From: a virus
Lineage: Duplodnaviria; Caudoviricetes
IMG/VR virus record: IMGVR_UViG_3300025867_000014
Coordinates: 13,639 to 77,638 of that record
Length of the DNA: 64,000 nucleotides
Strand: one strand, 5' to 3'
Below are positions 15,820 through 39,455 of the stretch, in pieces. The position numbers and the translations under genes are program-made. A model generated the notes under the pieces. That model saw only the letters and a list, made by a program, of their open reading frames with translations. It was not told the origin of the DNA and did no database searches. Position 1 is the first letter of the stretch. The number at the start of each line of letters is the position of its first letter.

Positions 15820-18800
15820 ATGGAACAAAAACAAAGAATCAGAACAGAAATTGGTAAAGACCACAAAATAAATGTTCAACTCAAACAAGAGTTTGGATTA
15901 TTAGAAATTTTATCATTAAAATTATCGCAACAAGATATATACACATCATTATGTGCTGATTATGGCGTTGTATGTGGAAGAGTTACCGTCAATAATGGAT
16001 ATGGTGTACCAAACGCCAGAGTGTCCATTTTTATTCCTCAATTAACAGAACACGAAGAAGACCCGGTTATTTCTGCGTTATATCCGTATAAATCATATGG
16101 GGATAAAACAGAAGAAGGGTTTAGATATAATCTATTACCCGCTCGAAGACAACATAGCGGGCACGCAGCAACTGGAACATTTCCAGACCAAAATGATATA
16201 CTATCAAGGGAAGATATACTTGAAGTGTATGAAAATTACTACAAATACACTGTAAAAACAAACGATGCTGGCGACTTTATGATTTGGGGTGTTCCATTAG
16301 GTGAACAACTAATTCATGTTGACTTAGATGTATCAGATATGGGTTGTTTTTCATTAAGGCCAGACGATTTCATAAGAAAGGGGTTTGGAATTGATGATTT
16401 TAAATCCGCATATGAGTTTAAAACAAGTGAAGACCTTGATTCATTACCACAAATTATAACATTTGATAAAGGAATAGAAGTTTATCCATTCTGGGGTAGT
16501 GAAGATTTGTGTGAAATCGGAATTACAAGGGTGGATTTTGACTTATCTGAAAGAGGATTAAAAGTTGAGCCAAGCGCAATGGTAATTGGTGGAACATTTA
16601 CCGATGACGGAAAGAATTCAATAAATAAAAACTGTAAACCACGAAAGAATATGAGTAAAAAATGTTCTTTTGTGACAAATGCGGGAAATATTGATGCAAT
16701 TCGATTTAGTGATAACTATGATATACATAATCTACCAGTATTGGAAGAATATACGGTTACGGATGAAATTAATGACGATGGTTCATTCGCAATCAGGCTT
16801 CCAATGAATAGGGATTTTTTATACACCACAGAATTTGGTGAAAATGACTATACGAATGACCCAAATAAAGGTATTCCAACATCTTCGTGCTATCGATTAC
16901 GATTTACCTTAACCGATGAAGGACTTGAAAGAGTAAGGGCAAGGGCGTCGTATCTCGTTCCAAACATACGAGAATTTGAGGGGGATGAAGATAGATCATA
17001 TGCGTGGTCATTACAATTTTCTGGTTATCCACAAGATGCTCAAGGAATGATATTAAATAATGTGGATGGTGATTACTACCCGCAAGACTATTTTTATAGA
17101 TTTCAATATGGTAAAGTTTATACCGTATCGTCATTTCAAAGTATGTTATTTGATTCCCCAAAAAGAATGTTGGGAATAAATGATATTGTACCATCAGAAG
17201 ATAAGGATTGTAGTAGTAGTGTGGTAACATTTCCAACAAATATGGGAATTAAGAACACATCATTTAATTTTCAATTATTATTGTCATTGGTATTAGCATT
17301 TTTGCAATTTGTGTTCTCATCAATATCATTAATTGCATACGAATTTATAGGTTCAATTTTAAAAACAATTAGCAATGTTATTAATATCGATATTTTTGGA
17401 TGGAAACCATTCGAAACATTATCTGAACAAATATTAGATGCAGCGTTTAATGTTCAAGCAGCGGGACAAATAGAATTACCATTAACAATATATGATACTT
17501 GTGATTTATGTTCAAATGATGATGAAACAGTTACACAAGGATTTGACCCAAATGCGTTTTGTAAAATTGCTGAACTTGGAATTGATGTCGTTGGCGTAAC
17601 AGGCGCAACGGGATACACATACTTTATATTACCAACAAATGTGGGGGCAACGGGTATTAATGAATCAACAGACCCCGGAACATCAATATATAATCCATCG
17701 GGTGGCGCAAGGGATTGTGATGGAAATTCAGAGTGTTGTGGATCATATAAAATATCAACAAGCGGATATTTGGCAATGAATTCATTATCAACACCTAATT
17801 CTTATGGTACAATTTATCCAAGATTTTATATCTATATGGGTGGTCATACAGGTGCTCCAATTGGTTCAACCGACTTTTATATTACAGGCACCACTGTTGA
17901 TTTCTCACGATACCCAATAGGAACTTATACGGTTAATGCAACGCCAATTACAGGATTTTGTTTTACAGATACACAAGTAAAATCATTATTTGGTATTGAA
18001 AGCGGCTCAACATATTTTCAAAATAATCAAATAACAAGTGGATATTATGGTTATATAATTGATAGAGAATTTCCAAAAATTCCTGTTGGTTCGTATACCG
18101 GTATAACCGTTGAAGAAGGTTGTGAAATGTATGATACCGTATATAATGAAAAACATATCAAGCAGTCATATTTGTGGATAAGCGGTACAACGAAGTATGA
18201 AAATCCAGAATTACCAGATATTTCACAACGATTGAATAATAGTATTACACCCGGAATCGAAGAATCGACAACAAAGCCGACATTCGGAAGTGAGTGGTCA
18301 ATAGGTGCAACTGTTTTCTATAAACCCGGACAAGGAAGATTACCCCGTTATTACGAATTTAGTAATATATCTGACCAAAGATATAATAGAAAAACAAAAA
18401 CCGGATATTCCGAATTTAGGGACGGTGTATTTTTAATAGTTCCATCAATTGATGGTCACTGTAGACAAAACGCATTTGCATTAAGGGAATGGTATAGAAG
18501 AAAAGTTATTGGATTGAATTTTTGTGGTGGTGTTGTTAATTTTGCATTTATAGATAATTGGTTATCTGGAGCATTATATTTCTTCCAATTTAAGGCGAAA
18601 ATTAAAGATAAAAAAGATGGCCAGAAAGTAAAAGCTTGTCAAACTGTTGTTAGATATTCAGCAGAAGACGAAAGGTTTTATTACAGGTCTTGCCCATACC
18701 GTTATGATTTGAATCCAAATGCTGAGGTTTGGGGTACGGATAACGAAAAAGGTAATTTAAAATACATTGCGCATCCAACAACATTTGTTGATTTAGGGCC

Positions 18801-37373: not shown

Positions 37374-39455
37374 ATGGCATTTTTTAACAACACAGAATCA
37401 GAAAATTTATCCGCAAGGATTACCAACAAAGGAAGACAAAAAATTGCGGAAGGTAACTTCAATATTGTTTATTTTCAAATTGGAGATTCCGAGTTTGATT
37501 ATACCTTTCCACAATTAAATGGAACAGATAGGGTTGGAAATCCACCGCAAAAAGTATTTTATCCATTGGATAGGGACGCTATTGTTAAATATCCATATAA
37601 ATTGTCCGAATCAGAAATTACAGGAACAACATTTGGAAACCCAATTCAATCTGCCGAAACAACCATATTGACAAACAATATGGGGGCGGCAGGATTTGTA
37701 AGCGAATATTCATCAACCGGGGCAACTGTAGGTTGTGATTATGTAGAAATAGATATTACCAAAATAAGTGGGACGACTACTTTGATTCTTCCAACGGGGG
37801 TCACATTCTATGGATGTGAATACATTACAATTGCATACCATCAATTAACAGGTACAGACCCAGACAATCCGATTATTTCAACATCAGCAAACAGTTTAGT
37901 ATATAGGGTTGTAACAGGGGTTACGGGTGCCAGTTTTAACACGCTAACATTGGATAGGAAAATGCCGGATTTATCCGGATTTTCGGGATATGCAACTGTT
38001 ATGTGTAATAAATGTAACCCATTTTTTAGAGGAACAAATGTCCCTACGCCTGATTGTGTAATAGTAACACAAGACCCTGAAGATAGACAGGATCCGTGGA
38101 CAATGAATATTGTATGGGGTAAAAAACCTGCGGGTATGGATGTTCCATATGTTATAGATGAAGAATTATCAGGATATACAAGTAATGTTTTTGTTTCAAC
38201 TAAAGAATATTTCGGGTACAACTCAATATTAGGTCAACTTACAAATACGGGGACGACAATTGTTAATTCATTAGGGGATGTAATTGTAGTTCCGCCAGAT
38301 GAACAACACTCATTAGCAATTGTTCATTATGCTGAAGTAAATAATTCATTAGAACCCGAGAAGTTTTTCAAATATGAAGATTATATTGCACATACAGATA
38401 GTGATGACATAACATATTTCGAAGTTTACATACCATATATCCTTTATCATAGAAATACAGGGACAACCATCGGTGCAAGATTCTTTATGGATACCGTTGA
38501 TTATTATGTTAATTCCGCGGCACAAGATACCAAATTGGATAAAATAAAATACCGTTACTTAAAAGATGAAAATGGGTTTAATGTGGGAAAAGTTTTTGTT
38601 AACCATAAAACCATTATATTTGACGACCAAGAAATTGTTGCGGCGTTAGATTATAAATCAAACAGAAAATATACATTACCTATTCCAAGAGTATCACAGA
38701 TACCTACCGACTTAAAATGTTCAACAAATACTGTCGGTTCAGCGACGCCATTAATGGCAGGAAATACAGGTGAAACTATGTTTATTAGTTATCTATTTGT
38801 GATGACGGGGAACACAGGAATGACAGGAATGCATTGTAATTATTATTCGAAAGTTACGGGTACATCTTTGAACGCAGATGTCGCTATTAATTTCTCGACA
38901 ACCGATTTTGTTTTTATGACCAATAATCTTTCAACATATAAAACAAAATACATAGCAAATAAATTCTTTGTTTTGGCTCAAATGGTAAATACGGGCGAAC
39001 AACCATTACCTGATGGTTGGAAAATAATTGATTTTACCGCAGAAATACCTAATCATACTGTTGGTACATACATTAATCCTGTTAATATGCGTGGGGCAAG
39101 ATTTATTCTTACATATGATGATTATGACAACGCAAGTAAGTATGATATTGAAGATTATTTAGGATTATTCCCAGATGAACCATCAACCGCGCCAGAATTC
39201 GGTGATACACAACCATTCCCGGGTAGTATAAAGTTTGTTAGAGCAACCGATATACATACAATGAGATTTTTGATTAATTTACCATCAAGTCAATTTATAA
39301 CAACACAAAATCCTACATATGTTGCAGGAACATCAAAATGGATAACAGAAGTGGCGTTATTAAATGAAAATAAAGATGTTATGGTAATAGCAAAAACATC
39401 AAAACCGGTAAAAAGAACTGGAACGCAAGTTATTGGTGTAAAAATCGACCTGTAA
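37374..39455 (+). CDS. Putative baseplate/tail fibre attachment protein (693 aa)
   Basis: N-terminal ARITNKGRQKIAEGNFNIVYFQIGDSE and C-terminal ITEVALLNENKDVMVIAKTSKPVKR resemble fibre-junction/wedge domains. Confidence 0.55.
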   Translation: MAFFNNTESENLSARITNKGRQKIAEGNFNIVYFQIGDSEFDYTFPQLNGTDRVGNPPQKVFYPLDRDAIVKYPYKLSESEITGTTFGNPIQSAETTILTNNMGAAGFVSEYSSTGATVGCDYVEIDITKISGTTTLILPTGVTFYGCEYITIAYHQLTGTDPDNPIISTSANSLVYRVVTGVTGASFNTLTLDRKMPDLSGFSGYATVMCNKCNPFFRGTNVPTPDCVIVTQDPEDRQDPWTMNIVWGKKPAGMDVPYVIDEELSGYTSNVFVSTKEYFGYNSILGQLTNTGTTIVNSLGDVIVVPPDEQHSLAIVHYAEVNNSLEPEKFFKYEDYIAHTDSDDITYFEVYIPYILYHRNTGTTIGARFFMDTVDYYVNSAAQDTKLDKIKYRYLKDENGFNVGKVFVNHKTIIFDDQEIVAALDYKSNRKYTLPIPRVSQIPTDLKCSTNTVGSATPLMAGNTGETMFISYLFVMTGNTGMTGMHCNYYSKVTGTSLNADVAINFSTTDFVFMTNNLSTYKTKYIANKFFVLAQMVNTGEQPLPDGWKIIDFTAEIPNHTVGTYINPVNMRGARFILTYDDYDNASKYDIEDYLGLFPDEPSTAPEFGDTQPFPGSIKFVRATDIHTMRFLINLPSSQFITTQNPTYVAGTSKWITEVALLNENKDVMVIAKTSKPVKRTGTQVIGVKIDL

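Follow-up and report, generated by a model that had tools for sequence, protein, structure and literature searches.

The window analyzed here is the final 64 kb of a 77,638-bp viral contig in IMG/VR (record IMGVR_UViG_3300025867_000014), a jumbo myophage fragment rated 25% complete. Our subject is a block of tail genes in this window (positions 15820 to 39455, forward strand) and a tetrapeptide, [ST]GxT (Ser or Thr, Gly, any residue, Thr), that recurs in the proteins encoded there. The window has a low G+C content (about 0.33), and its replication and structural genes form a T4-style mix, with a gp32-like protein, a RecA/UvsX-like protein, a 5'-3' exonuclease, a DnaB/KaiC-like helicase, and a class II-type ribonucleotide reductase; further genes code for a primase, SbcCD, a sigma factor, an amidase, a Dam methylase, and a NusG-like protein. 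The same contig carries a gp19-like tube gene immediately before the start of the window. The block is directly preceded, on the same strand, by two inner wedge genes (13482 to 15765), which encode a gp25-like protein (13482 to 13931; PF04965, E = 2e-12) and a Baseplate_J (gp6)-like protein (13933 to 15765; PF04865, E = 3e-4), both with 0 [ST]GxT sites. Given these immediate neighbors, we read 15820 to 39455, on grounds of synteny, as the probable peripheral wedge and fiber part of a contractile-tail baseplate module. The large proteins of the block match no PHROG or Pfam family, except for Fib_succ_major and fn3 domains in two fiber-like proteins, and tblastn searches with the motif-rich proteins against isolated phages gave no match.

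Eight proteins of the block together carry 81 [ST]GxT sites against about 11.6 expected, an approximately 7-fold excess with z scores of 3 to 16 (expected counts and z scores of individual window proteins are from 500 residue shuffles each), while all other window open reading frames (ORFs) of at least 100 amino acids (aa) hold 6 sites against about 7 expected. In gene order, a motif-rich protein of 1,362 aa occupies the gp7 position of a T4-type wedge module (15820 to 19908; 8 sites against 1.24 expected, z = 6.1; no Pfam or PHROG family). The motif-densest gene, at a peripheral baseplate position, encodes a 597-aa protein in which 12 of the 17 [ST]G dipeptides belong to motif sites (19908 to 21701; z = 14.2). 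It is followed by a mildly motif-rich 282-aa protein (21695 to 22543; 2 sites against 0.12 expected) and a motif-rich 306-aa protein with a PKD-like segment (22545 to 23465; 7 of 11 [ST]G, z = 7.3). The next gene encodes a 302-aa protein that provides an internal negative control (23524 to 24432; 0 of 3 [ST]G). Beyond it lie a 1,820-aa motif-rich fiber or outer-baseplate protein (24432 to 29894; 26 of 36 [ST]G, z = 15.9), a moderately motif-rich 1,375-aa fiber with Thr/Pro stalks and a Fib_succ_major domain (29916 to 34043; PF09603, E = 4e-17), whose composition is dominated by TPT-type patterns (12 sites against 5.1 expected, z = 3.2), a mildly motif-rich 284-aa protein (34094 to 34948; 3 against 0.65, z = 3.1), and a motif-rich 693-aa protein (37374 to 39455; 11 of 19 [ST]G, z = 11.2). 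The gp25-like, gp6-like, and tube proteins are not enriched, and neither are the 302-, 279-, and 310-aa proteins within the block.

An earlier note, made from the letters of this DNA, had interpreted the tetrapeptide as a recognition signal for a modifying enzyme acting on the whole virion. Its hand counts of 26, 12, 7, and 11 sites in the 1,820-, 597-, 306-, and 693-aa proteins were exact when repeated by script, and its report of zero sites in the NrdJ-like ribonucleotide reductase (which has 14 [ST]G), the DnaB-like helicase, SbcC, and RecA was reproduced. The proteins concerned are rich in Thr, Ser, and Gly, so that chance, amino acid composition, or a signal at the nucleotide level might be thought to generate the motif; this explanation is refuted, and we give it practically no weight. 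The excess over Ser/Thr/Gly composition survives the residue shuffles, with z reaching 16 in the 1,820-aa protein, and in a scan of all gapped tripeptide patterns in the seven linker-free proteins, T-G-x-T (z = 19) and S-G-x-T (z = 14) lead by a wide margin, with nothing comparable in the replication proteins; together these results rule out an artifact of composition. Codons at the sites follow background usage, Ser is encoded by both AGY and TCN, and no excess is seen in any of the five remaining frames, placing the signal in the protein rather than in the DNA and excluding a DNA-level motif. Recent slippage was likewise rejected as the source of the T-G-x-T-G-x-T doublets, as their codons differ and they are not nucleotide duplications. 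The earlier note had also held that the sites are scattered through unrelated folds and do not form a tandem repeat, and this was borne out: sequences flanking the sites resemble one another no more than control windows do, which rules out a single repeated domain in the window, the sole exception being one paralogous domain common to the 1,820- and 1,375-aa proteins.

For comparison, we used four relatives that are complete or 75% complete (G001 to G004), among them the complete genomes G002 (310,542 bp) and G004 (321 kb). Spacing of the sites has no reproducible period, the peak at 25 to 32 residues in the window being absent from G002 and G004, and a solenoid-like periodicity was therefore discarded. 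The specificity of the motif was determined from a pool of 503 [ST]G dipeptides in the enriched proteins of the window and the two complete relatives. Position +3 is Thr in 255 of these, against 57 expected, and Ser in 32 (42 expected), while Val and Ile are not favored there. For a generic turn, Asp or Asn would be expected to substitute at the first position, but [DN]G is followed by Thr at +3 in just 29 cases against 31 expected; position +3 is likewise flat after Ala/Gly-Gly, hydrophobic-Gly, and charged-Gly. As the preference occurs only after [ST]G, the coupling requires a hydroxyl at position 0, Gly at +1, and Thr at +3. No site has Pro at x (0 of 255; 12.3 expected), where Asp and Lys are rare. 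Positions -1 and +4 favor Ile, Leu, Val, Tyr, and Phe and contain hardly any charge, matching strand-type flanks. A fuller form of the motif would be hydrophobic-[ST]-G-(not Pro)-T-hydrophobic, and we regard it as a short linear motif on which selection has acted in the protein. Over-representation in presumed substrates after correction for composition and exclusion of Pro at the free position are both features of sequons.

The excess is reproduced in more than 100 homologs and across 80 related loci, in which the 1,362-, 597-, 282-, 306-, and 1,820-aa families are enriched and the gp25-like, gp6-like, and 302-aa families are not. Thus, 34 homologs of the 1,362-aa protein average 7.2 sites against 1.6 expected, 20 homologs of the 1,820-aa protein average 15.8 against 3.0, and the 282-aa family has a mean of 5.2 against 0.9; corresponding values are 0.5 against 0.3 for the 302-aa family, and the gp25-like and gp6-like homologs (n = 64 and 69) average 0.0 and 0.1 sites. 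The 597-aa protein has more than 1,000 metagenome homologs and is found on viral contigs of up to 335 kb. Its 120 best homologs average 10.1 sites, with five columns kept in 83 to 115 of the 120 and the remaining sites gained or lost among homologs; within the conserved columns, Ser and Thr interchange freely at position 0, where Asp and Asn are rare, while Gly and the Thr at +3 are fixed, Gly being the best kept. In the 306-aa family, 59 homologs average 6.7 sites, and columns 173, 213, and 233 are kept in 54 to 56 of the 59. The clade is a large group of uncultured jumbo myophages whose hosts are likely Bacteroidota.

The two complete relatives show where in the virion the motif resides and how it has been acquired. 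In G002, nine proteins pass a Poisson threshold of p < 1e-3, namely, those of the syntenic baseplate/fiber block, the sheath, and a few fiber-like proteins, with the remaining 434 ORFs at background. The G002 portal has 0 of 3 [ST]G in motif form and the major capsid protein 2 of 13, at most a weak signal; for the tube protein, the count is 0 of 2. All seven sites of the sheath fall at residues 133 to 579, outside its conserved core (652 to 934). With capsid, portal, tube, and inner baseplate showing no excess, the motif marks outward-facing parts of the tail and not the entire virion, and in this respect the earlier note was wrong. G004 is collinear with the window, at 22 to 63% identity across matched proteins. 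Its ortholog of the 597-aa protein is equal in length and 29% identical and has only 3 sites: 9 of the 12 window sites align with unrelated G004 residues, including the site kept in 115 of the 120 close homologs, so that the fold does not need the motif. G004 is nonetheless motif-rich in other proteins, among them its homolog of the 693-aa protein (7 of 15 [ST]G) and the products of four fiber genes. This pattern indicates that sites were gained within sublineages and then held, in different proteins in each. The motif-free 302-aa protein is the most conserved of the block, with 58% identity to G004 against 27 to 38% for its neighbors; when it was considered as a candidate enzyme, searches of the ESM Atlas and PDB gave no lead and no family was matched.

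Predicted structures give a partial view of the sites. In an AlphaFold2 model of the 597-aa protein (predicted local distance difference test [pLDDT], 70), the secondary structure assigns 10 of the 12 sites to loops, which differ in length and in several cases are of low confidence. Local contexts range from long low-confidence loops to a helix and strand edges. Some sites are at strand ends or hairpins in this model and in that of the 306-aa protein, the latter being poor (pLDDT, 58) and too weak for use. A Foldseek search with the 597-aa model returned no match at E <= 0.001, and VIA-align matched only a common small beta-barrel (residues 199 to 280; Z = 8.4); this is an absence of matches and not evidence for a new fold.

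As the earlier note had stated, family searches found no glycosyltransferase within the window, and its expectation that such genes would lie elsewhere in genomes of the lineage was upheld in that each of G001 to G004 encodes several predicted ones. GT2 genes are scattered in all four; Glycos_transf_1 exceeds its curated cutoff only in G001, with subthreshold matches in G002 and G004. All four also encode a homolog of GT60 (PF11397), the CAZy family of protist polypeptide alpha-N-acetylglucosamine (GlcNAc) transferases that start mucin-type O-glycans, whose known members transfer GlcNAc onto Thr or hydroxyproline of polypeptides (PMC8724618). The G002 homolog (L084:5055-6305; 416 aa) matches PF11397 with E = 2.9e-72 and 244 bits, against a curated cutoff of 21, and phrog_24687 with E = 1e-169; those of G001, G003, and G004 are likewise above the PF11397 cutoff. 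GT60 homologs occur on at least 587 viral contigs; four partial relatives, with genomes 33 to 65% complete, gave no match, a negative that carries no weight. In six phage homologs, D92-S93-H94, H229, and a W-H-E-Y-T-R segment are invariant, D92-S93-H94 and H229 being candidates for the metal-binding D-x-H and downstream His of the family, and PDB sequence searches with the phage GT60, singly or as a profile, found no match.

The GT60 gene is often the first of a variable sugar-building operon, in which its partners include GT11, GT25, HtrL_YibB, sugar-methyltransferase-like, and UDP-galactopyranose mutase genes. HtrL_YibB is present in the operons of G003 and G004, and CmcI-like methyltransferase domains also in that of G004. 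One such operon is a codirectional run in G001 (L146:12561-18946) of GT60, a GT4-like gene, GT25, an unknown gene, GT11 (a fucosyltransferase family), a methyltransferase, and UDP-galactopyranose mutase (Glf), an enzyme set that recalls the GlcNAc-galactose-fucose logic of the protist Skp1 glycan. Of 63 GT60 loci, 57 of which include two or more upstream genes, 27 have a motif-enriched gene among the four upstream of GT60, compared with 1 locus that has one among the four downstream. In G002 and G004, GT60 directly follows motif-rich fiber genes (G002, 124262 to 127285; G004, 56869 to 59950; L088 and L124); these fibers share a C-terminal module, P-x-M-T-x-x-E/Q-R-x-A-I ... Y ... G-W, and repeat a unit of about 30 residues that starts, turns, and ends with [ST]GxT. 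A GT60 with 49% identity to that of G002 is encoded by the Xanthomonas phage Xoo-sp13 (L105:7992-9344), an unrelated jumbo myophage; the capsid, portal, terminase, and sheath of the two are just 26 to 33% identical. This disparity suggests horizontal transfer of the gene or unusually strong constraint on its sequence. In the Xanthomonas phages, a carbamoyltransferase gene comes next after GT60.

We infer that a factor reads the motif in trans, from the convergence of unrelated proteins, the lineage-specific gain of sites followed by their conservation, the strict hydroxyls, and the outer location. With genomes so rich in glycosyltransferases, O-glycosylation is the leading candidate. Accordingly worded, [ST]GxT may be a tag on outward-facing tail parts (the peripheral baseplate, the fibers, and the outer sheath domains) that is most likely read by a phage-encoded O-glycosyltransferase, a plausible but unproven reading to which we assign a probability of about 0.35. 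Such an enzyme would work in the cytoplasm of the host, while the virion is being assembled or earlier, and put a sugar on one of the two hydroxyls in exposed loops or at beta-turn tips; the outcome would be a glycan coat over the tail periphery, serving in shielding or adhesion. The stricter form of this proposal, that the tetrapeptide serves as an O-glycosylation sequon in the true sense, recognized on folded tail proteins by a cytoplasmic glycosyltransferase that the phage encodes, we hold only tentatively. What stands of the recognition signal in the earlier note is that the motif is real, selected, at the protein level, and on outward-facing tail parts. Several observations weigh against a tag for glycosylation. 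The window contig (77.6 kb, 25% of the genome) encodes no glycosyltransferase. Outside the enriched proteins, the motif is not avoided: the remainder of the G002 proteome has 45 sites against 32.7 expected, although avoidance in cytoplasmic nonsubstrates is not obligatory for a sequon. In some fiber proteins of the relatives, a repeat of roughly 30 residues carries the motif at constant positions, and the hydrophobic residues at -1 and +4, together with Gly as the best-kept position, also suit a beta-hairpin element.

These last points are the substance of the main competing explanation, which we consider only slightly less likely than the tag: that [ST]GxT is a tight beta-turn or hairpin cap, with Gly in the turn and the hydroxyl pair exposed, accumulated for stability or folding with nothing reading it. 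The exclusion of Pro at x, the near absence of charge in the flanks, the sites at strand ends and hairpins in the models, the reuse of the motif at set points of the fiber unit, and its toleration in the rest of the proteome are all consistent with such an element. It is harder to reconcile with the chemistry, since Asp/Asn-Gly in the same proteins shows no preference for Thr at +3 and Val or Ile do not replace that Thr. A structural role would also predict retention of sites along with the fold, but the G004 ortholog, of equal length and fold, lacks 9 of the 12; local contexts in the 597-aa model differ from site to site, and spacing is aperiodic. Moreover, the tail proteins of Xoo-sp13 show no excess (65 sites against 73 expected), and a purely structural preference would not account for why unrelated proteins converge within a single lineage. 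An enzyme tag and a structural element are compatible, in that an enzyme could recognize a hairpin tip presenting two hydroxyls. Unlikely, in our view, is a docking tag, to which a decoration, cement, or assembly-chaperone protein would bind or which would itself make weak contact with host surface polysaccharide: it would account equally for convergence across unrelated peripheral proteins, for sites gained in a lineage and then conserved, and for their location in loops and outer sheath domains, but no candidate partner was found, the sites number in the dozens per protein, which is a lot for a stoichiometric binder, and the strict need for two hydroxyls suits hydroxyl chemistry somewhat better.

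If a glycosyltransferase does read the tag, it is improbable that GT60 specifically is the reader. The presence of the gene in all four of the more complete relatives and on hundreds of viral contigs, its position directly 3' of motif-rich fiber genes in G002 and G004, and the transfer of GlcNAc to Thr or hydroxyproline by known family members (PMC8724618) speak for it. However, of 61 genes located immediately upstream of GT60, 31 carry a Thr/Pro tract and only 7 are motif-enriched, and there is no motif-rich gene within 12 kb upstream of GT60 in G001 and G003. Xoo-sp13, for its part, has GT60 and a dozen proteins with Thr/Pro tracts but no excess of the motif. This adjacency to Thr/Pro tracts and the Xoo-sp13 genome, both of which also count against glycosylation of the motif itself, make GT60 the likelier enzyme for the Thr/Pro stalks, and more probably it serves these than [ST]GxT. 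In the window, positions 29916 to 37344 hold consecutive fiber genes that encode such stalks as well as two domains of the Fib_succ_major family (PF09603; E = 4e-17 and 1e-22), to one of which an fn3 domain is joined, and their Thr/Pro tracts are better GT60 substrate candidates than the tetrapeptide.

A further motif-bearing gene lies apart from the block. This Pro-free, collagen-like ORF (61650 to 63998, forward strand), built of Gly-Ser-Ser and Gly-Ser-Thr triplets, runs off the end of the contig and matches PF01391 with E = 5e-101; it contains 63 [ST]GxT sites against 23 expected, any Thr-ending triplet after a Ser- or Thr-ending triplet being an instance of the motif. A long shadow ORF is present on its opposite strand. 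Since a (G-x-T)n run is a chain of T-G-x-T and the window contains such a gene, the scattered sites may, speculatively and by analogy, mimic a collagen-like primary substrate.

Elsewhere in the window (56618 to 58602), a LAGLIDADG homing-endonuclease-like ORF is directly 5' of the D12-class Dam methylase gene, with the phage NusG/KOW-like gene next. In G002 (L082:10414-16290), the terminase ORF (1,014 aa) has an inserted segment that matches an anaerobic ribonucleotide reductase PHROG, and the portal ORF (924 aa) has an HNH-endonuclease segment at residues 198 to 281; each of the two segments may be an intein or a mobile insertion in a packaging gene.

If [ST]GxT is a modification site, environmental jumbo phages would sugar-coat their outer tail by means of a simple, predictable tag, with a bearing on host recognition, on evasion of surface defenses or grazers, and on the stickiness of phages in water, and the tag would be a compact one for cytoplasmic O-glycosylation in glycoengineering. 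As a true sequon, it would represent the first sequon-directed virion glycosylation system in phages and a new enzyme-tag pair, and the glycan coat of thousands of uncultured jumbo-phage proteins would become predictable from sequence. Were it instead a structural or docking patch, it would still be an unusually clear case of convergent spread of one tetrapeptide through unrelated virion proteins. Either way, it is a cheap sequence marker for outward-facing proteins in a very abundant uncultured lineage, the tail genes of which have no match among known families.

Known sequons include N-x-S/T in N-glycosylation and D-[ST]-[AILVMT] in O-glycosylation of Bacteroidota, both acting outside the cytoplasm on secreted proteins. 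The tetrapeptide resembles these in being short, in having a free middle position that excludes Pro, and in preferring a Thr two or three residues from the hydroxyl or amide acceptor; it differs from them in sequence. We know of no enzyme or glycan for [ST]GxT, and in our search of the literature, neither TGxT nor SGxT was found described as a phage or bacterial glycosylation motif. In BclA of the Bacillus exosporium, collagen-like Gly-x-Thr repeats are O-glycosylated on the Thr in the third place of the triplet. Junctions in such (G-x-T)n repeats read T-G-x-T, and the window has both a Pro-free collagen-like gene and frequent T-G-x-T-G-x-T doublets; unlike in BclA, most sites are single and lie within globular beta-rich domains rather than in a triple helix.

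Among phages, the nearest counterpart is the O-glycosylation of mycobacteriophage virions by phage-encoded glycosyltransferases (Freeman et al. 2023, as cited in PMC12619734). As far as that citation conveys, the two systems are alike in that the phages (here, the relatives) encode their own glycosyltransferases, that structural proteins are the proposed acceptors, and that a shielding role has been proposed. In the mycobacteriophages, by the same account, the glycans are on C-terminal extensions of capsid and tail-tube subunits, as shown by mass spectrometry, whereas the candidate sites here, known from sequence alone, are internal, defined by a tetrapeptide, and on the baseplate and fibers; the tube, portal, and capsid, by the counts above, do not resemble acceptors of the mycobacteriophage type. 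With the protist GT60 enzymes of Dictyostelium and Trypanosoma cruzi (PMC8724618), the relatives share a clear family member (E = 3e-72), and the known enzymes start O-glycans on Thr-rich polypeptides; in contrast to [ST]GxT, their acceptors are mucin-like Thr-rich tracts or the hydroxyproline of Skp1, and the phage gene lies outside the window. The "moraphages," freshwater Bacteroidota jumbo phages of 200 to 307 kb with four core glycosyltransferase groups, have been described in a paper that does not mention the motif (PMC12619734). Matched by description only, the present lineage is like them in habitat, in genome size, in its T4-like gp6, gp25, gp19, and sheath genes, in its sigma factor, and in its many glycosyltransferases.

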